NCBI GenBank assembly: GCA_027001345.1
Contig: JALTMS010000108.1
Coordinates: 1-25,899 of the forward strand
Direction of reading: 5' to 3'
Origin: Acidobacteriota bacterium
GTDB lineage: Bacteria > Acidobacteriota > Polarisedimenticolia > J045
DNA: 25,899 nt
Positions 1-25,899 of the stretch are shown here, in pieces. The first letter of the stretch is position 1. Each line of letters begins with the position of its first letter. The notes under the pieces were generated by a model that was not told where the DNA came from, did not search any database, and worked only from the letters and a program-made list of their open reading frames with translations. The position numbers and the translations under genes are program-made.

Positions 1-430
1 CCTGTTTCAGGAGCGTGCGCACCCGCGCCAGAGGGTGCTCGCCCTTCTCCAGCAGCGCCTCGACGTCGATGGTGGCGATGATCTCGGCCTGGGTGGCCCA
101 GTAGGGGGCCTTCCCGGGCTCGGGCCGGTCTGCGGCGCGGTCCGGTGATCCCTCCCGGCCGGCCTTCGCGGGAGCCCTTCCCCCTCCTGCCGGATCCGCC
201 GCGGGCAGCCCCGCCGCCTTGCGAAGCTCGAGCACCAGCTCCCGGGTGTCGATTCCCGCGATGCCCGCGGCCTTCTCGATCGTCGCCAGCTTGGCGACGG
301 TCTTGCGTAGCACGGGGTTCTTGAGCTTGTTGAAGATCGGTGCGATCTCGATCAGTTTCTCTTCCAGTTCCGGGTAGGCCTCGAGCAGGGCCCCGATCTT
401 CGTATCCGGAGTGATCGCCGGTTTGCTCAT
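1..430 (-). CDS. DUF1858-domain protein with probable following DUF2249-like domain (3' end outside window)
   Basis: Not in the ORF track. Manual translation from ATG 430 gives MSKPAITPDTKIGALLEAYPELEEKLIEIAPIFNKLKNPVLRKTVAKLATIEKAAGIAGIDTRELVLELRKAAG, a typical DUF1858 pattern. A linker follows, then IDVEALLEKGEHPLARV. The ATG overlaps the upstream TGA (ATGA). Confidence 0.8.
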   Translation of the reverse strand, partial: MSKPAITPDTKIGALLEAYPELEEKLIEIAPIFNKLKNPVLRKTVAKLATIEKAAGIAGIDTRELVLELRKAAGLPAADPAGGGRAPAKAGREGSPDRAADRPEPGKAPYWATQAEIIATIDVEALLEKGEHPLARVRTLLKQ

Positions 431-1674
431 GCCTTCTCCTCCTCTTCCCACGCCAGAAGCCTTCGCTCTCCTTCGAGGGCCCGCAGGGCGGTGATGTCCT
501 GGGTCACCTCCAGGCAACCGAGGTACTCACCCTCCTTCGAGCGCACCGCGAAATAACGGATATGGACGAAGCGGGGCCCGAGCTGGATCCAGAACTCCGC
601 CACGTCCTTCTTGCCGCTGCGGAAGCTCGAGAGGATGTTCTCGACGATGTGCACGCTCTTGGGCGGATGGCAGTTGTGCACCTTGCGGCCGATGACCGAG
701 GGCACCCGCTCGAAAACCCGGTCCTTGCTCTCGGTGAAGAAGGCGACCCGGTCATCGGCATCGACGAAGGTCAGATCCACCGGCAGGACCGAGAAGATCG
801 CCTGGAGCTGCTCGCCGGTGGCCTGCCCCGCCCCGAGGGCGATGGCGGCGCTGCGGCCCGCCTCGAGAGCCGGGTCGGACTTCGAGGCTTCCGTGGGTAC
901 GTAGCCGAGATTGGGTTTGACCAGGCAGTAACCGAAGCGGCGGGATTCCCTGTGGATCTGCGCCCACGCCTCCGGCTCGAGCACCTCCAGGGCCATCGGC
1001 AGGAGGATGTTCTCCTCCTTGTAGATCATCTCGCTGACCCCGTCGAGCAGCGGCACGACGACGTGCTCGGCGATCAACTGCCACTCCTCGAGCCCAGCGC
1101 CCTCGGCGGTGAGGGCCTCGCGGAAGGCCTTGAGCATCTCCCGGATGTCGTCGTCCTTGGCCCACATCACCTGGGAGGGCCCGTCGATGCCGTGACGCTC
1201 GAGGTGGGAGAAGAGGATGTTCTCCTTGCGGGCGTAGTGCTTGTCCAGCTCGAGGAGCTTCTCGCAGCCCTCCCTCCAGCGCTCGAGCAAGGGGGGGAGA
1301 AGCGACTCGTCCCCGAGCCCTCGGACCTTTTCGGTCACCTCCCGCATCTGCTCGACGACCTCCCGTACGGCGTCGTTTTCCCGCAGGAAGGTGTCCACCG
1401 GATGACCGAGGGGATAGGAGGGGATCGTCGGCTTGACGAGGACCTCCCGCATCACCTGGGAGTGGAGATCGCACATGCTCTTGATCTCTCCCGGGTCCAT
1501 GCCTTCGTCGATGAGCTGGTTTTCCATGGCGACGATCTCATCGCTGGTGGTCTCCCGCACGAGAGCCGCGAGTTGCTGCTTGACGTGGGCGGGGTGGTCC
1601 CCCTCGTGGAGGCCGCGAATCACCGTCTTGAGTCGTTCGATACGCCGCTGACGTTCAGGGTCGGACTGGCTCAT
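427..1674 (-). CDS. DUF438 / hemerythrin-like / PAS_10 domain protein
   Basis: DUF438-type N-terminus (EIVAMENQLIDEG, MCDLHSQV), hemerythrin-like helices (HPVDTFLREN, HYARKENILF, VMWAKDDDIR, MIYKEENIL) and a C-terminal PAS (LPVDLTFVD...IGRKVHNCHPPKS...YLGCLEVTQDI). Start moved to ATG 1674, which has a GAGGA-type RBS. Confidence 0.85.
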   Translation of the reverse strand: MSQSDPERQRRIERLKTVIRGLHEGDHPAHVKQQLAALVRETTSDEIVAMENQLIDEGMDPGEIKSMCDLHSQVMREVLVKPTIPSYPLGHPVDTFLRENDAVREVVEQMREVTEKVRGLGDESLLPPLLERWREGCEKLLELDKHYARKENILFSHLERHGIDGPSQVMWAKDDDIREMLKAFREALTAEGAGLEEWQLIAEHVVVPLLDGVSEMIYKEENILLPMALEVLEPEAWAQIHRESRRFGYCLVKPNLGYVPTEASKSDPALEAGRSAAIALGAGQATGEQLQAIFSVLPVDLTFVDADDRVAFFTESKDRVFERVPSVIGRKVHNCHPPKSVHIVENILSSFRSGKKDVAEFWIQLGPRFVHIRYFAVRSKEGEYLGCLEVTQDITALRALEGERRLLAWEEEEKA

Positions 1675-2027
1675 GGGTCTTCCTCTCCTCGTGGAGAGTC
1701 TCTCCACGCTGGACGCGACCAGGATAGCCCTCGAGGCGGCCTCCCGCCCCGGCTACGGGGTGCGGAGGCGGTGGGGGAGCGGGCCAGGTCGATGACGACA
1801 TCAATCACGGAAAGGAAGTAGCGCAACGAGCGCACGAGCGGCTGTGCGTGATCGTGTTCGGGACCGCTGCTGGCGGCGAGCAGCATGGCCGTCTCGACCG
1901 GTTCGAGCGTGACCCGGCGCTCCCAGAGTGTCCTCGCGAGGCGCCGATCGGCGGTGCGGACGTTAGTCCGGGTTGGTCCTGCTGTGCCCGATTCCTTGGA
2001 CTCGAAATGAACACCCCCCGAGAGCAA
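1671..2027 (-). pseudogene. Hypothetical or degenerate ORF, possibly a mobile-element remnant
   Basis: 118-aa ORF whose TGA overlaps the ATG at 1674. The core ADRRLARTLWERRVTLEPVETAMLLAA...PLVRSLRYFLSVIDVV looks protein-like, while the flanks are low-complexity. Start uncertain. Confidence 0.35.
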
Positions 2028-11818: not shown

Positions 11819-13618
11819 CTAGCAACGAGGGGAGTCCTGGTGCCCGTCGCCGACATCCTCGGTCAAACTCGGCCCCAGGACCGCTTCGACCAGACCCCCA
11901 AAAGCGGCCTCCAGGTGCTCACGGATCTCCTTGCCCGTCGGCAGCCCCATCGCCTCCGAGACGACCCGGCGGGCCGCCTTCTCGCTGCAGCGACGCAGAA
12001 TCGAGCGAACCTCCGAGACCATCACCGGGTTGCAGGAGAACTCACGCAAGCCCAGGCCGAGCAGTGTCAGAGCGCCGAGAGGCTCCGAGGCCATCTCCCC
12101 GCAGAGCGCCACCGGAATCTCCCGCCTCCGCGCCGCGAGAATGATCTCCCGCAACAGACGCAGCAGCGCCGGGTGCCACGGATCGTTGAGATAGGCCACC
12201 GAGCGGTTGCCCCGATCGACGGCCAGCGTGTACTGCTGCAAATCGTTGGTCCCGATGGAGAGAAAGTCGGACTCGCGGGCGAGCGCATCGACGACCAGCG
12301 CCGCAGCGGGGATCTCGATCATCGGCCCGAGCGGCACGGGGGGAATGCGGTGTCCTTCGGCTTCGAGTTCCTCGCGAACTCCTGCGACCATCGCTCTGAC
12401 CTCGCGCCACTCCTCGAGACCCGAGATCATCGGAATCATGATCCGGATATTGGGGTATTCGGCCGCAGCCAGCAGCAGGCCGCGAAGCTGGGTGCGAAAA
12501 ATATCGGGCCGCTTGAGACAAAAGCGAATCGCACGCAGCCCCATCACGGGATTCGGCTCGCCCGAGTCCAGGACATCGTTGAAATACTTCTCACCACCGA
12601 GGTCGAGGGTACGAATCACGACCGGTTGCCCTTCGAGTTCGCGAGCCAACCGGCAGTAGGCCTCAAAATGTTGATCCGTGTCGGGCAGGCGGGGAGCCGT
12701 GGCAAGGAAGAGGAATTCAGAACGGTAGAGCCCCACGCCACTGGCGCCGACACGATGGAGGGTCTTGACCTCCTCGAGGAACTCGACGTTACCCCGCAGC
12801 ACCAACTCCACACCGTCGGTGGTGCGGACCGGACCCCGGTCCATCTCGAAGGCGGCTTCGAGCTGTTCGAGCCGCGCCCGCTCACGCAACCGGCTGTCTT
12901 TCTCCTCTGCCGTCGGGGCGACGATCACGGTGCCGTGGAACCCATCGACGATCAACTCGTCCCCCTGCTCGACCATCTCCGTCACGCCCTCCGCGCCGAG
13001 CACGGCGGCGATCTCGAGGGCGTTGGCAAGGATCGCGGTATGAGAGGTCTTCCCTCCCTGTTCGGTGACGAAGGCCACGATCCGAGGCTGGTGCAGCCAG
13101 AGGGCATCGGAAGGCAGCAGAGATGGAGCGACGATCACCGTATCCTCTTCGAGTTCGAGGATCCCTTCCTCCCGGTTGGATTCGAGCGCCAGAATCCGCT
13201 GGAGCCGCGTATGGACGTCCGAAATATCGCCGCCCCGCTCGCGAATGTAGGGATCGTCCACACCGGCAAATGCCGCCAGCAGGCGCTTGACCGTCTTGGC
13301 CAGCGCCCACTCGGCGTTCAGCAGGTCATCTCGAATCCGGCCCATCGTCTCGCGGCCGAGACTGCGATCATCGAGAATCATCAGGTGGGCATCGAAGATC
13401 GATGCGTACTTGTCGCCCAGCTCGCGCGCCGCCTTCTCGCGCAGTGTGCCGATCTCGTCTCGCGCCTGACGCCGCGCGCGCCAGAAGCGCCGGAATTCCG
13501 AGCGCACGTCGGCCGGCGCGATGCGGTAGCGGGGAAGATCGCTCTCCCAGCGCGAAATGACCAGCGCCCTGCCGACTGCGATGCCGTGCGAGACGGCGAT
13601 GCCTCGCACCGTTTTCAT
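11819..13618 (-). CDS. ptsI: PEP-protein phosphotransferase (PTS enzyme I)
   Basis: Phospho-His in KTSHTAILA, GVGLYRSEF, IRTLDLGGEK, NPVMGLRAIR, SIGTNDL, LCGEMA. No N-terminal GAF domain. Confidence 0.95.
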   Translation of the reverse strand: MKTVRGIAVSHGIAVGRALVISRWESDLPRYRIAPADVRSEFRRFWRARRQARDEIGTLREKAARELGDKYASIFDAHLMILDDRSLGRETMGRIRDDLLNAEWALAKTVKRLLAAFAGVDDPYIRERGGDISDVHTRLQRILALESNREEGILELEEDTVIVAPSLLPSDALWLHQPRIVAFVTEQGGKTSHTAILANALEIAAVLGAEGVTEMVEQGDELIVDGFHGTVIVAPTAEEKDSRLRERARLEQLEAAFEMDRGPVRTTDGVELVLRGNVEFLEEVKTLHRVGASGVGLYRSEFLFLATAPRLPDTDQHFEAYCRLARELEGQPVVIRTLDLGGEKYFNDVLDSGEPNPVMGLRAIRFCLKRPDIFRTQLRGLLLAAAEYPNIRIMIPMISGLEEWREVRAMVAGVREELEAEGHRIPPVPLGPMIEIPAAALVVDALARESDFLSIGTNDLQQYTLAVDRGNRSVAYLNDPWHPALLRLLREIILAARRREIPVALCGEMASEPLGALTLLGLGLREFSCNPVMVSEVRSILRRCSEKAARRVVSEAMGLPTGKEIREHLEAAFGGLVEAVLGPSLTEDVGDGHQDSPRC

Positions 13619-13888
13619 TCAGCGTCCCTCACCGAAACGCTCGGCGATCAAGCCCGCCAAAGCCTCGATCGCCTCGCCCTCGTCGGGCCCGTCGGCCACC
13701 AGCAGCAACTCCGTACCACGAGGCGCCCCGAGGGTAAGAATGCCGAGGATCGACTTTCCATCGACCGTCATCGTCCCGAGACGAATCTCGACGCTGCTGC
13801 GGAAGCGGTTGGCCAGGTTGACGAAGCTCGCTGCAGCCCGAGCGTGCAGGCCTTTCTCGTTGACCAGTTTCACGCTCCGCTCGGTCAT
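13619..13888 (-). CDS. ptsH: Phosphocarrier protein HPr
   Basis: GLHARAA (His15) and DGKSILGILTL (Ser46). Confidence 0.95.
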   Translation of the reverse strand: MTERSVKLVNEKGLHARAAASFVNLANRFRSSVEIRLGTMTVDGKSILGILTLGAPRGTELLLVADGPDEGEAIEALAGLIAERFGEGR

Positions 13889-14301
13889 ACCGGCGCCTCC
13901 CCCCGCCCGGCGAGGACTTCTCCGGCCACTGTGATGTGCCAGCGCCCCTTGGCAGCCAGCACCTGAGCCGCCTGCTCGATGGTCTGCTCGCCACGGAGAT
14001 TGTTGAACTTCACGATCATCGGCAGGTTGACCCCGGTGACCACTTCGACGCGACCCGGTTCGAGCAGCGTCATTGCCACATTGGCCGGCGTCCCCCCCAG
14101 CATGTCGGTGGCGATGATCACTCCGTCACCCTGATCGATTTCCCGCAGTGCCTGGCGCATCGCCTCCAGGCAGGCGGCGGAGTCCTGATCCCAGTCCAGC
14201 ACCAGGGCCTTCATCACTCCCGGCTTGCGGACGATGTGCTCGGCGGCATCGAGCAACTCGAGTGCCAAACGACCATGGGTCGCGATCAACAGACCAATCA
14301 T
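13885..14301 (-). CDS. Stand-alone PTS EIIA, mannose/fructose family
   Basis: MIGLLIATHG, ATDMLGGTPAN, VTGVNLPM. ATG 14301 overlaps the rapZ TGA. Confidence 0.92.
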   Translation of the reverse strand: MIGLLIATHGRLALELLDAAEHIVRKPGVMKALVLDWDQDSAACLEAMRQALREIDQGDGVIIATDMLGGTPANVAMTLLEPGRVEVVTGVNLPMIVKFNNLRGEQTIEQAAQVLAAKGRWHITVAGEVLAGRGEAPV

Positions 14302-15185
14302 CAACTCTCCCGCCTCGAACCGCGCTCGATGTCCCGGTGGCGGACCTGGGTCCGATAGCCCGACTGGGCCAGATAGCGTGATGTGCGCTCGGCCAGGGCC
14401 ACCGACCGATGTCTGCCTCCGGTGCAGCCGAACGCGATGGTCAGGTAGCTTTTGCCTTCGAAGACATAACGCGGCATGACGAAGGCCAGCATCTCCTCGA
14501 GCTTGGCGCAAAACCCCGTGTAGCTGGGCTGGGACTCGAGGAAATCGACGACTTTCTCGTCCCGCCCGCTGAACTCGCGCAAGCCCGGCTGAAAATACGG
14601 GTTTTCGATGAAACGCACGTCGAAAACCAGATCCACGTCTCGTGGCAGCCCGTGCTTGAAACCGAAGGAGACCAGCCGCACCAGCAGGTCACCCGTCTCG
14701 GAATGATCGCTGAGAACCGACTTGATCTGTCGCCGCAAATCGTGCGGCGACAGCGAGTCGGTGGCAATCACCCTGTCGGCCAGATCCCGGAGCCCGGAGA
14801 GCAATTCGCTTTCTCTTCCAATGGCCTCAGCCACGCCCAGGGAATCCTGCAGGGCCACCGGATGTGGCCGGCGGGTTTCCGAGAACCGACGCACGAGCAC
14901 GTCGGGCGACGCCTCGAGGAAGAGCACCGTCACCCTCAGGTCGGTGCGCTCTCGCAGCTCTTCGACGATCGCCGGCAACGTATCGAGATGCCCGCGCTCT
15001 CGCGCATCGACGACGAAGGCTCCCTGGGGCTCGACTTCTTCTCCCCGGTCGAGCAGATCGACGAACGGCGCAATCAGCGGCACGGGCAAGTTGTCTACCG
15101 AAAAATAGCCCATGTCCTCGAGGCAGCGCAGAGCGAGAGTCTTACCCGACCCGGAAAGACCCGAGAGAACCACCAGCTTGATCAT
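14301..15185 (-). CDS. rapZ: RNase adapter / P-loop NTPase RapZ (YvcJ)
   Basis: SGLSGSGKT, VDNLP, RFSETRRPHP, SFGFKHG, DVRFIENP, GCTGGRHRSV, HRD. Confidence 0.95.
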   Translation of the reverse strand: MIKLVVLSGLSGSGKTLALRCLEDMGYFSVDNLPVPLIAPFVDLLDRGEEVEPQGAFVVDARERGHLDTLPAIVEELRERTDLRVTVLFLEASPDVLVRRFSETRRPHPVALQDSLGVAEAIGRESELLSGLRDLADRVIATDSLSPHDLRRQIKSVLSDHSETGDLLVRLVSFGFKHGLPRDVDLVFDVRFIENPYFQPGLREFSGRDEKVVDFLESQPSYTGFCAKLEEMLAFVMPRYVFEGKSYLTIAFGCTGGRHRSVALAERTSRYLAQSGYRTQVRHRDIERGSRRES

Positions 15186-16153
15186 CGGCTCTCCTCCTCG
15201 CCCGGTGGGCGTTCAGACAGGCGGCGAGCCAGCTCGGCCTGAATCTCAGCCGCGGCGTCGATGCCCCTGGCTCGCAGCAACTGCTGTCGGGCCGCGATTT
15301 CGAGGATCACCGCCAGGTTTCTCCCCGGTGCCACGGGAACTTCCCTCAACGGCACCCGGTGCCCGAGCACCTCCCACCACGCCTGTTCCTCGCCCAGCCG
15401 CTCGTAGGAGCGAGTCGCGTCGAAGCGCACGAGCCGAATGGCCTGCTCAACGGCCTTGATCTCCGCCACTGCCGTGATGCCGAACATCTCCCGTGCGTTG
15501 ATCAGACCCAGGCCCCGCACCTCGAGATAATAGCGGGAAAGCTCGGGCGACGCGCCGATCAACTCGTCTTCGATCAAACGTAACTCGACGGCATCGTCGG
15601 CTACCAACCGATGACCGCGTGTGACCAGTTCCAGAGCGCACTCGCTCTTGCCGATCCCTGACTCCCCGAGCAGCAGCACCCCCAGACCGAAGATGTCCAT
15701 CAGCACACCGTGGATCGTCTTCCGCGGTGCCAGGCGAACTGCCATGAAGTGGAACAGCGCCTCCATTACCTCCCCGGTGACCGCCGCCGTGCTCAGCAGC
15801 GGCACCCCTCCGGCCTCGGCGGCATCCACCAGAGTCGGCGGCGGAGCCAGACCCCGAACGAGCAGCAGCGCCGGGAAACTGCCATCACACAGACGCCCGA
15901 TGGCCGCCGCCGCACCGCGACTGCGCCGGTTGAGAAAACGCGCCTCGCTGCGTCCGAGCACCTGCAAGCGACCTTCGTGCAGGTATTCGAGACCTCCGGT
16001 CAGAGCCAGTCCCGGTTTCTGCAGCCGAGGACTGGCCAGGGCGCGGTCCAGCCCCCGGCTCCCCGCGAGGACCTCGAACGCGAAGCGCTGGGAGAGGGCA
16101 TCGACCATCTCCCGAACTGTCGGGGGATCCGGCTTGTACGGTGCTGGACTCAA
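15182..16153 (-). CDS. hprK: HPr kinase/phosphorylase
   Basis: QKPGLALTG, HGVLMD, GESGIGKSE, LVADD, LEVRGLG, PVAPGRNLA. Start uncertain: TTG 16153 has a GGAAG RBS, with an alternative at 16207. Confidence 0.93.
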   Translation of the reverse strand: MSPAPYKPDPPTVREMVDALSQRFAFEVLAGSRGLDRALASPRLQKPGLALTGGLEYLHEGRLQVLGRSEARFLNRRSRGAAAAIGRLCDGSFPALLLVRGLAPPPTLVDAAEAGGVPLLSTAAVTGEVMEALFHFMAVRLAPRKTIHGVLMDIFGLGVLLLGESGIGKSECALELVTRGHRLVADDAVELRLIEDELIGASPELSRYYLEVRGLGLINAREMFGITAVAEIKAVEQAIRLVRFDATRSYERLGEEQAWWEVLGHRVPLREVPVAPGRNLAVILEIAARQQLLRARGIDAAAEIQAELARRLSERPPGEEESR

Positions 16154-16257
16154 GGCAGGGCTTCCAGTGGGCACCGGCGATGAGCCGGTCTGACAAACCC
16201 CCGGCAAAAGTGGGAAAAGGGGGTTTTCGAGGATAGCTAAGCACTAATGGATCTGTT

Positions 16258-23448: not shown

Positions 23449-25212
23449 TCAGCTACGCTCGAAGCGGGAGTTGAGAGAAGAAAGGTCGATCCGCAGGGAG
23501 ATCACGCGTCCATGGGGGCAGTGGCTCGGGCACTCGCAGGCCTCGAGCCCTCCCAGAAGGTAGTTCATTTTCTCCGGACCGAGAGGGTACCCCTTCTTGA
23601 CCGCCGCGTGACAGGCCACCGTGGCCAGCAGGTGGTCGAAGAGATCGACCGGCGCGGCTGCGTCCCCCCGATCAAATCGAGCCAGCAGATCGGCCAGAGC
23701 CTCGGGCCGCGCCTGCTCGCCGAAGACGGCCGGAACCTCTCGAACGATCAGCGATGTCTCGCCGAAAAGGTCGAAGCGGAATCCCAGACGCTCGAGTACC
23801 TCACCCTGCTCGGCGGCCAGTTCCAGCTCTCGGGGCCCGAGTTCCAGTGGGCGGGGAAACATCAGCCCTTGCCGAGGCAGCGGCCCGGCCGCCGCCTGAC
23901 GGGAGAGTTGCTCGTAGAGCAGGCGTTCGTGGGCTACGTGCTGATCGACGATCAGCAGACCCCGGGCATCCTCGGCAACGATGAAGGTGTTGCGGAACTG
24001 GGCCAGGGCCCGAGGTGCATCGGACACCAGAGCCCCCTGGCCCTGCCCGTCCGCGCACGTCGGCTCCCCCTCGTCGGCCACCGTCGGAGCGGGGCTCGTC
24101 GATGCGGACTCCTCCCGGACCGGCGGTGCGACGGCCGCGGGCCCCACTGCGCCGATAGCCGCTGGCTCGAAGCGATCCCCTCCCACCCCGAACTGTTCGC
24201 GGCCGAAGCTGGGGATCGCGGCGCGACTGGCCAGAGCCTGCTGGAGCCCCCCGATGATCAGGGCGCGAATCTGGCCTGGCCGATGGAAACGCACCTCGCT
24301 CTTGGCGGGATGGACGTTGACATCGACCTCTTCCGGCGGCACTTCGAGCCAGACCACGACCACCGGGAAACGCCCCGAAGGCAGCATCGGGCGATAAACG
24401 TCGAGCACCGCCCTGACCAGCAGGGGATCGCGCACCGGGCGAGCGTTGAGAAAGAGGTGAACCCCATCGCGACTGGCCCGAGCCAGATCGGCGGGACCGG
24501 CCCAGGCCCGCAGAGCCAGGGCTCCGACCTGCCTCTGCACCTCGACCAGTCGCCGCGCTGCAGCCGCCCCGACGATGCCCGCGATCCGCTCCGCCGGCTG
24601 CTGCCCCTCCGGCAGAGCCAGCAGGGTGCGCTCCGCCTGTCGCAGGCGGAAACCCACCTCGGGACGTGCCATCGCCGCCCGCCGCACGGCTTTCAGGCAG
24701 TGATCGAGTTCGGTCGCGGGCGTCTTGAGGAACTTGCGCCGAGCCGGAATGCCGGCAAACAGGTCCATCACCCCCACCGTCGTGCCCCGGGCGCGGGAGG
24801 CCGGATCGACCCGCAAGAGCCTTCCCTGCTCGATCAGCACCCGGGTAGCCCGGCCAGAGTCGTCTTCCGCAGAAAGCAGCTCGACCCGGGAGACGGCAGC
24901 CGTGGCGGCCAGAGCTTCACCGCGGAACCCGAGGGTGGCGATCCGTTCGAGATCCTCTCCGACGCGGATCTTGCTCGTGGCATGACGCTCGAAGGCCAGC
25001 AGGGCGTCATCGCGCCCCATGCCACAACCGTCATCGCTGACTCGAACCAGCTCCCGACCCCCGCCCGCCAGGCTGATTTCGACCTTGTTCGCTCCAGCAT
25101 CGAGGGCATTGTCGAGCAGCTCGCGGAGCACCGATGCGGGCCGCTCGACCACCTCCCCCGCAGCGATCCGGTCCGCCACCGCCTGCTCGAGCACCTTGAT
25201 TCTTCCCACCAT
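23449..25212 (-). CDS. mutL: DNA mismatch repair protein MutL (endonuclease-containing type)
   Basis: IAAGEVVERPASVLRELLDNALDAG, GFRGEAL, DVNVHPAK, endonuclease DQHVAHERLLYE, clamp-binding-like QGLMFP, ACH, CPHGR. Start ATG 25212 with GGGAGG RBS. Confidence 0.96.
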   Translation of the reverse strand: MVGRIKVLEQAVADRIAAGEVVERPASVLRELLDNALDAGANKVEISLAGGGRELVRVSDDGCGMGRDDALLAFERHATSKIRVGEDLERIATLGFRGEALAATAAVSRVELLSAEDDSGRATRVLIEQGRLLRVDPASRARGTTVGVMDLFAGIPARRKFLKTPATELDHCLKAVRRAAMARPEVGFRLRQAERTLLALPEGQQPAERIAGIVGAAAARRLVEVQRQVGALALRAWAGPADLARASRDGVHLFLNARPVRDPLLVRAVLDVYRPMLPSGRFPVVVVWLEVPPEEVDVNVHPAKSEVRFHRPGQIRALIIGGLQQALASRAAIPSFGREQFGVGGDRFEPAAIGAVGPAAVAPPVREESASTSPAPTVADEGEPTCADGQGQGALVSDAPRALAQFRNTFIVAEDARGLLIVDQHVAHERLLYEQLSRQAAAGPLPRQGLMFPRPLELGPRELELAAEQGEVLERLGFRFDLFGETSLIVREVPAVFGEQARPEALADLLARFDRGDAAAPVDLFDHLLATVACHAAVKKGYPLGPEKMNYLLGGLEACECPSHCPHGRVISLRIDLSSLNSRFERS

Positions 25213-25488
25213 CGCCTCCCGAGCCGGACGCCGCGCTCGACGGCCCATTATCCCGTCTGTCCGCATTCCGTGCCCGCAAGCCAGACTGATCGCAGGCCGA
25301 GAAAGGTCTTTTGTCTTCAGCGAGATTGTGCTAGATTCCGCCGGCTCCGGAACCTGCTTTCCGGGCTCGGGCCTGCCCGTGGGCCCAACTAAACAGGCAG
25401 TATGGCCTTCGTTAGATGCCAACGAGGCATCCCGCGTCAAAGTGGCGCACCAGAAAGGCGAAAAAGGCCGTTTTTGACCCCCCAAAGA

Positions 25489-25504
25489 TGGCATACAGGT
25501 TGCA
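25489..25504 (+). promoter_or_regulatory. sigma-54 (RpoN) -24/-12 promoter
   Basis: TGGCAT-ACAGG-TTGCA versus consensus TGGCAC-N5-TTGCW, with exact GG/GC spacing, 40 nt before the ATG at 25545. Confidence 0.8.
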
Positions 25505-25544
25505 ATAGCATGGGCGGGACGAGAAACCCGCCGAGGTAAAGCTG

Positions 25545-25899
25545 ATGTGGATTCCCTGGCTTCTGAAAGAAAAGTCTCTTGACGACTTTGTCGACCACGA
25601 CGGGGAAACCCGGCTCTCCCAGTTGATGGAAGATCCTGGTACGGCTCGTCCCGAAGACAACGTCTACAAGAAAGAACTGGTCCAGCTCACGCGCCAGGCT
25701 CTCGAGGAGCTTCCCGAAAGGGAGCGGCTGATCCTCCTCAAGCGCTTTGGAGTGATGGGTAACGACGAAATGACCCTCGAAGAGATCGGCAAGATCCTCG
25801 GGCTGTCCCGCGAGCGCGTGCGGCAGCTCGAAAAGGAAGCAAAGTTGAAGCTGCGCGAGCGATTGGGCTCCTTGCGCCAGCAGTTGAACTTCGCTCTGA
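25545..25899 (+). CDS. sigma-70 region 3.2 plus region 4-only protein (runs off window end)
   Basis: Manual translation: MWIPWLLKEKSLDDFVDHDGETRLSQLMEDPGTARPEDNVYKKELVQLTRQALEELPERERLILLKRFGVMGNDEMTLEEIGKILGLSRERVRQLEKEAKLKLRERLGSLRQQLNFAL. GAGGT RBS is present, and an in-frame TAG lies at 25506-25508. Confidence 0.85.
   Translation, partial: MWIPWLLKEKSLDDFVDHDGETRLSQLMEDPGTARPEDNVYKKELVQLTRQALEELPERERLILLKRFGVMGNDEMTLEEIGKILGLSRERVRQLEKEAKLKLRERLGSLRQQLNFAL

Follow-up and report, generated by a model that had tools for sequence, protein, structure and literature searches.

The usual view of a sigma factor is that of a single unit, or in rare cases a pair of adjacent halves, in which region 2 is indispensable. 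Sigma-derived parts can also serve regulation instead of promoter recognition. In the alphaproteobacterial general stress response, the sigma-like domain of PhyR, which has region-2- and region-4-like parts and comes with a receiver, is switched by phosphorylation and titrates NepR. Rsd, T4 AsiA and gp39 of a Thermus phage are foreign ligands of sigma-4 or of the flap that alter the work of the housekeeping region 4 on RNA polymerase. In the split sigmas, namely SigO-RsoA of B. subtilis, Sig7-Sig8 of Tn916, gp33/gp34 of SPO1 and gp55/gp33 of T4, the region-4-bearing piece is a separate protein with an incomplete set of regions; the genes of the known pairs adjoin each other, and neither part is dispensable (bioRxiv 10.64898/2026.10.01.756105).

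Here we analyse a gene that encodes only the tail of a sigma factor and that we call half-sigma. It lies at the very end of the window, by which we mean the whole analysed stretch of 25,899 nucleotides; this is the entire contig C108 of a 748-contig MAG (91% complete), and most of its sequence words are held by a hydrothermal-vent metagenome run. With the C-terminal part of the group 1/2 factors of the sigma-70 family (RpoS, RpoD, SigB) half-sigma shares collinear, ungapped homology over about 100 residues, the same finger length, the 4.1 helix and the -35 recognition helix. It differs from them in lacking regions 1.2-3.1, so that the main core-binding surface, -10 recognition and melting are missing, in starting at the last turn of region 3.1 with a motif of its own, and in forming a separate clade. 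The split sigmas differ from it in their layout, half-sigma being monocistronic and no region-2-only partner having been found in five genomes. Compared with PhyR, it has regions 3.2-4 only, carries no receiver and is switched at transcription. With Rsd, AsiA and gp39 it would share the proposed action only; those proteins are unrelated to it in sequence and fold, half-sigma being itself a sigma-4 with a finger. Full-text searching of the literature turned up no natural protein made of regions 3.2-4 alone, which does not in itself prove absence, and half-sigma looks like an undescribed RNA-polymerase regulator.

A conserved gene for a free-standing sigma tail

The coding sequence of half-sigma (25545..25899, + strand) comprises 118 of 119 codons. 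Its open reading frame (25545-25898) translates into 118 residues and runs into the contig end, which cuts the frame about two codons 5' of the stop. The genome G001 of the same genus shows that the window misses just the last codon or two, and in 20 or more relatives the frame stops after 119 codons; the lengths range from 117 to 123 codons and the start motif is always M-x-[IF]-P-[WL]-L. The stop codon that the preliminary description had wanted to see downstream is thus provided by the relatives, and a fusion into a larger ORF is ruled out. On the other side, an in-frame TAG (25506..25508, +) closes the frame 13 codons upstream of the ATG, and in some relatives a stop codon lies only one codon 5' of it. 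Because of this TAG and of the mere 332 nt that separate the gene from the divergent mutL start at 25212, there is no room for a region 2 in the window, as had been argued before from the same TAG and an estimate of about 330 nt; the relatives likewise have neither a region 2 nor room for one. A Shine-Dalgarno GAGG (25533..25536, +) stands 8 nt 5' of the ATG, and GAGG or AGGA is retained upstream of the orthologues.

The sole Pfam match above cut-off is Sigma70_r4 (PF04545, residues 52-105, E 1.1e-18). Neither region 2 nor region 3 reached the cut-off, Sigma70_r2 gave no match, and GerE is absent among the Pfam matches at E up to 0.1. PF22233 scored 13.5 bits against a cut-off of 27, and the 119 residues contain no receiver domain. 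With NCBIfam, residues 10-108 align to positions 177-275 of the 285 positions of RpoS; the generic sigma-70 superfamily model TIGR02937 alone was passed (62.1 versus 42.9 bits), and there is no dedicated model, while PADLOC and PHROGs returned generic sigma matches only. The family profile aligns with its positions 10-105 to residues 505-600 of E. coli sigma-70 as seen in holoenzyme structures. Aligned with the RpoD and the three group-2-like sigmas of its own genome, half-sigma is collinear and ungapped from the last turn of region 3.1 through the finger and the linker to regions 4.1 and 4.2. Region 3.2, the sigma finger, is encoded at 25569..25634 (+; residues 9-30, corresponding to about 504-525 of E. 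coli sigma-70), and region 4 with the 4.1 helix and the 4.2 helix-turn-helix at 25698..25859 (+; residues 52-105). These data bear out the earlier claim that at least 118 codons are collinear with the C-terminal part of a group 1/2 sigma-70, and the stretches that had been named as finger, 4.1 helix and 4.2 HTH were correctly assigned.

Residue conservation was taken over 47 half-sigma members, down to 52% identity. In the finger, S11, D13 and R23 are invariant, and D14, V16, D17, E21 and L24 are at least 90% conserved. Region 4.1 keeps R59, E60, R67, F68 and G69 in all members, and region 4.2 keeps T77-L78-E79, I81-G82 and the whole run from L87 through L95 (LSRERVRQL), which contains the -35 recognition helix SRERVRQL. 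By alignment, R89, E90, R91, R93 and Q94 correspond to R584, E585, R586, R588 and Q589 of E. coli, the residues that read the -35 hexamer. An AlphaFold2 model computed with the family alignment gives a confident sigma-4 helical bundle over about residues 41-110, with 10-residue block means of pLDDT between 77 and 96 from residue 41 onwards, yet nearly all of residues 1-34 fall below a pLDDT of 50 when the protein is modelled alone. The N-terminal 34 residues are hence predicted to be disordered alone despite several invariant or near-invariant positions, as expected of a segment that folds only inside RNA polymerase. Region by region, conservation is high in the finger and in 4.2 and low in the linker, which parallels the full-length C449-type RpoS-like sigma of the same genomes. 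From conservation and model we infer that half-sigma is still constrained as if it were placed like the C-terminal third of a sigma factor, in the RNA-exit channel and cleft, on the flap and on the -35 DNA.

A search of 40 relatives returned the same short frame at 86-99% identity within the window's family, and distant copies at 45-56% identity in other families of the class. The median dN/dS is 0.06 (Nei-Gojobori, 78 orthologue pairs), with synonymous sites near saturation, and three separate studies provide Logan contigs that extend across the promoter and the gene start. In a small microbial-mat metatranscriptome, contigs of a related strain cover 25526-25899, and the same run holds nothing on the intergenic region or mutL; all 15 listed differences between the main RNA contig and the window are synonymous, and the 5' end at 25526 is close to the predicted transcription start. 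Coming from one small run, from assembled contigs and from a related strain, this is modest evidence of expression. Half-sigma is a real, strongly conserved gene, neither a broken sigma gene nor an artefact. The preliminary description had proposed just that, a genuine stand-alone sigma 3.2-4 protein, and had named a short form unique to this genome, or the lack of purifying selection or expression, as grounds for giving the idea up; instead the short form is shared by the relatives, purifying selection is strong and some evidence comes from RNA.

A sample of 201 genomes from across the phylum contained half-sigma in 12 of the 17 genomes of the window's class and in none of the 184 other Acidobacteriota. 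A profile scan of 61 genomes of the class gave full-length short copies in 41, and an exhaustive profile search of 1.8 billion representatives gave only about a dozen clusters at 50% identity whose match begins at residue 1. The short proteins make up one clade (support 97/95) in a tree built from the region 3.2-4 segment. Second or third copies at 61-66% identity occur as L031 (G009:C12), L032 (G003:C1, about 2.59 Mb) and on G033:C10. According to the tree they are recent within-family duplicates; all three lie away from mutL, and examination of their upstream regions showed the -24/-12 promoter to be absent, the G003 paralogue having a sigma-70-like TTGACT/TATTGT pair in its place. A metagenomic protein library contains many other sigma 3.2-4 proteins of 114-127 aa that lack the N-terminal motif of the family (P0112, P0126, P0131, P0148, P0188, P0205 and others). 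Several of them begin at an internal Met of region 3.1, and they may be contig-end fragments or independent short forms. A region-4-only ORF of 136 aa in G003 turned out to be an ECF sigma broken by masked bases.

A sigma-54 type promoter next to mutL

The only conserved neighbour of half-sigma is mutL (23449..25212, -; Pfam MutL_C, DNA_mis_repair and HATPase_c), and the divergent linkage is kept across the class. The gene downstream is convergent and varies by genus, being a multihaem cytochrome in some and a DHH protein in another, which makes half-sigma monocistronic. In G001, a 13-bp GC-rich hairpin followed by a T-run, i.e. a terminator, lies about 84 nt past the half-sigma stop.

Upstream of the gene we find a sigma-54 type -24/-12 promoter, TGGCAT-N5-TTGCA (25489..25504, +), with a predicted start at about 25515. 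A footprint of 200 nt was aligned for 11 sequences (genera or species); the mean column identity is 53%, whereas TGGCA and TTGC show no variation. All mutL-linked orthologues have the element, even those at 45-56% identity. In the orthologues of the family it reads TGGCAY-N5-TTGCW and stands 40-107 nt, mostly 40-60 nt, 5' of the ATG, and the distant mutL-linked orthologues show the near-consensus -24 forms TGGTAT or CGGCAC. No sigma-70 consensus promoter was seen in the intergenic region, and an Rfam scan of this region and of the gene gave no match. The questions that had been raised as to whether homologues adjoin mutL and a -24/-12 box can both be answered with yes for the mutL-linked orthologues, and the proposed own RBS and dedicated promoter are both conserved.

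Between the promoter and mutL lie two palindromes with a GCC-N5-GGC core (25415..25449; 25415-25431 and 25433-25449), whose centres are 18 bp apart, at positions of about -92 and -74 relative to the predicted start. Within the 53%-identical alignment the blocks GCCA..GGC and G.CA..TG.CG do not vary; the palindromes are kept within the window's family and have the same spacing in G013. The pair are candidate binding sites of the cognate sigma-54 activator. A genome scan that allowed up to 2 mismatches found no second such site adjoining a -24/-12 promoter. Between palindromes and promoter lies an A-tract/T-tract (25460..25476), whose A-run and T-run most orthologues retain; it may serve DNA bending.

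Each genome contains one rpoN. G000 has 33 Sigma54_activat matches, corresponding to about 25-30 activator ATPase genes if split matches are allowed for. The strict -24/-12 motif occurs only 23 times in the 3.8-Mb genome, 16 times just upstream of a predicted ORF. One such promoter lies 5' of a type IV pilin gene that adjoins a gene for an activator ATPase (G000:C2:1410) and another 5' of a FlgD-like flagellar gene, on a contig that also carries a FliA-like sigma (G000:C339), so sigma-54 seems to be used for pili and flagella here. Within the window, a strict TGGCAC-N5-TTGCT is present at 14252-14267 (-), between rapZ and the called EIIA ORF of a PTS-regulatory cluster (11819-16207, -; hprK, rapZ, an EIIA-Man-type gene, HPr and enzyme I); it may fall inside coding sequence, as the Pfam match suggests that EIIA starts further upstream. 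Unrelated to half-sigma, a 426-aa protein with a DUF438, a hemerythrin domain and PAS_10 is encoded at 427-1707 (-) and is a possible oxygen or iron sensor.

Full-length sigmas at the same position

Two families of the class, f4 and f12, do not have the short gene. Directly upstream of mutL and co-directional with it, they encode an RpoS-like sigma of 343 aa (L119, L122, L123 and L144-L149; genomes G034, G025, G039, G233, G236, G247, G244, G223 and G238). It occurs in 9 of the 61 genomes of the class and never alongside the short gene. A TGGCAC-N5-YTGC-type element lies upstream of all nine copies examined; in the three with a located start it stands about 80-90 nt 5' of the start codon, and in the remaining six no more than about 260 nt from the protein match. 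The arrangement is an RpoN-to-RpoS-like cascade with a distribution complementary to that of half-sigma. Because f4 and f12 group together in the tree of C449-type sigmas, it may go back to a single evolutionary event. A comparable RpoN-to-RpoS cascade is the Rrp2-RpoN-RpoS pathway of Borrelia burgdorferi. It resembles the f4/f12 arrangement in that a sigma-70-family gene stands behind a -24/-12 promoter, and differs in that most families of the class have only a sigma tail as the sigma-54-driven product.

Throughout the class, the position upstream of mutL is thus held by a sigma-54-driven sigma-family gene, whole or tail only, a hint that the tail goes back to a sigma-54-to-RpoS-like cascade. 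In profile score, its closest full-length relatives are the sigmas of the C449 type, which all genomes possess and which reach 95-107 bits versus 61-69 bits for the mutL-linked full-length sigma. Half-sigma groups with the C449 type in the best tree, albeit without support, and the half+sigY clade, which represents an in-situ origin from the mutL-linked sigma, is not rejected (p-AU 0.47). As far as the sequences go, half-sigma may have arisen in situ from the f4/f12 type of sigma or from the C449 type; the tree rejects neither origin and cannot decide between them.

Possible modes of action

We tentatively favour a reading in which the tail, induced through sigma-54, docks onto RNA polymerase as well as -35 DNA and in this way competes with sigma-70-family factors or modulates them. 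Half-sigma would then be the finger, linker and region 4 of an RpoS/RpoD-like factor set free from the region 2 that binds core and reads the -10 element. Transcribed alone from a sigma-54 promoter that needs an activator ATPase, it would be made only when the signal is present, and it would take the usual places of a sigma factor at the beta-flap tip, in the RNA-exit channel and the active-site cleft, and on TTGACA-like -35 DNA. Because such a tail could not open promoters, it would be a competitor or modulator of sigma-70-family holoenzymes, and the outcome would be a sigma-54-controlled damping or re-weighting of housekeeping and RpoS-type transcription. Several of the observations favour this reading: the finger keeps its sigma length in the collinear match to sigma-70 505-600, the -35-contact and 4.1 residues are invariant down to 52% identity, the region-wise conservation matches that of a full-length RpoS-like sigma, and the sigma-54 promoter is footprinted across the orthologues in genomes with rpoN and activators. 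What the sequences show is a conserved gene with the anatomy and promoter architecture described above; docking and its consequence are inferred. Other considerations count against it. Since most of a sigma factor's affinity for core comes from region 2, a tail by itself may be a weak binder that would compete only at high levels. The area of the flap and exit channel is also used by sigma-54, so that sigma-54-dependent transcription might be affected too, and an invariant DNA-reading helix is equally expected of a free DNA-binding regulator.

A more specific version appears possible to us, if somewhat doubtful. Here half-sigma would be a natural trans-acting sigma tail, a sigma-54-switched, dominant-negative finger plus region 4 that plugs the exit channel and flap and/or caps the -35 element and so re-programmes or silences sigma-70-family transcription; its single origin would lie in an RpoS-like sigma under sigma-54 control that lost its N-terminal two-thirds.

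The invariance of SRERVRQL across the family and the confidently predicted sigma-4 fold would also suit an autonomous small DNA-binding regulator. Its HTH would bind -35-like boxes in the manner of GerE/LuxR-type proteins, to whose HTH domains region 4 is homologous, and would repress or activate a regulon, with the region 3.2 part serving dimerisation or partner contact. We consider this unlikely: isolated sigma-4 binds DNA only weakly as a monomer, the Pfam match is Sigma70_r4 and not GerE, and the sigma-like length of the finger, its conservation and its disorder alone would be left unexplained.

The profile scores of the C449-type sigmas, which every genome encodes, lead to a different idea, in which half-sigma mimics the C-terminal half of a resident sigma, most closely this RpoS-like type, and as a decoy titrates a binder of region 4, be it an anti-sigma, an Rsd/AsiA-like factor or an activator. 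Sigma mimicry has its precedent in PhyR, which acts against NepR, and inducible expression suits a titrating protein. We nevertheless judge the decoy quite improbable. No anti-sigma candidate lies beside the half-sigma gene or the C449-type sigma gene, around which the ORF lists, taken alone, show no evident anti-sigma gene; the PhyR-like receiver domain and region-2-like part are absent, and the conservation of the finger would again have no explanation.

The sigma-like constraint seen on finger and -35 helix alike would also be expected of a functional C-terminal half, and since split sigmas exist (bioRxiv 10.64898/2026.10.01.756105), half-sigma could be one half of such a factor whose region 2 comes from a separate protein, comparable to SigO-RsoA, Tn916 Sig7-Sig8 or SPO1 gp33/34. 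We searched for this partner with PF04542, PF04545 and PF08281 in five genomes of the family (G000, G001, G003, G004 and G005). All PF04542 matches were in ORFs that also match PF04545 or PF08281, except for six ORFs, which were read. By eye, five of these are ECF-type sigmas with divergent sigma-4/HTH ends, and the sixth, a weak match in G003, cannot be read because masked bases break it. This search of the five genomes gave no region-2-only partner, though a highly divergent RsoA-like one could escape it. There is also no adjacent co-transcribed region-2 gene, the neighbours being the divergent mutL and the variable convergent gene, with a terminator past the half-sigma stop, whereas the known split sigmas are encoded by adjacent genes. 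With half-sigma standing alone and no partner at hand, the split sigma that the preliminary description had listed among its options, next to a flap competitor, an anti-sigma decoy and a -35-binding repressor, is unsupported and, in our view, improbable.

That half-sigma is a decaying sigma-gene remnant or an assembly artefact, as a contig that ends within the gene and a fragmented MAG of 748 contigs might suggest, can practically be dismissed, because the same 119-aa gene occurs in the same context in dozens of genomes including a single-contig chromosome, its median dN/dS is 0.06, its promoter is conserved and contigs of three separate studies span promoter and gene start; misassembly at the contig end is ruled out by the same genomes and contigs.

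For annotation it matters that pipelines name half-sigma a sigma factor, since it passes the TIGR02937 cut-off, although it almost certainly is none. If it does act as a trans-acting sigma tail, half-sigma would correspond, as a protein, to 6S RNA or Rsd. In this class of Acidobacteriota, all that a lineage has retained in this gene of a sigma factor is the finger with region 4, under strong selection across the entire class and wired to the sigma-54 system. Should this tail dock on RNA polymerase, it would offer a natural means of studying the finger and region 4 alone, and it would represent a new route by which one sigma system controls the other.
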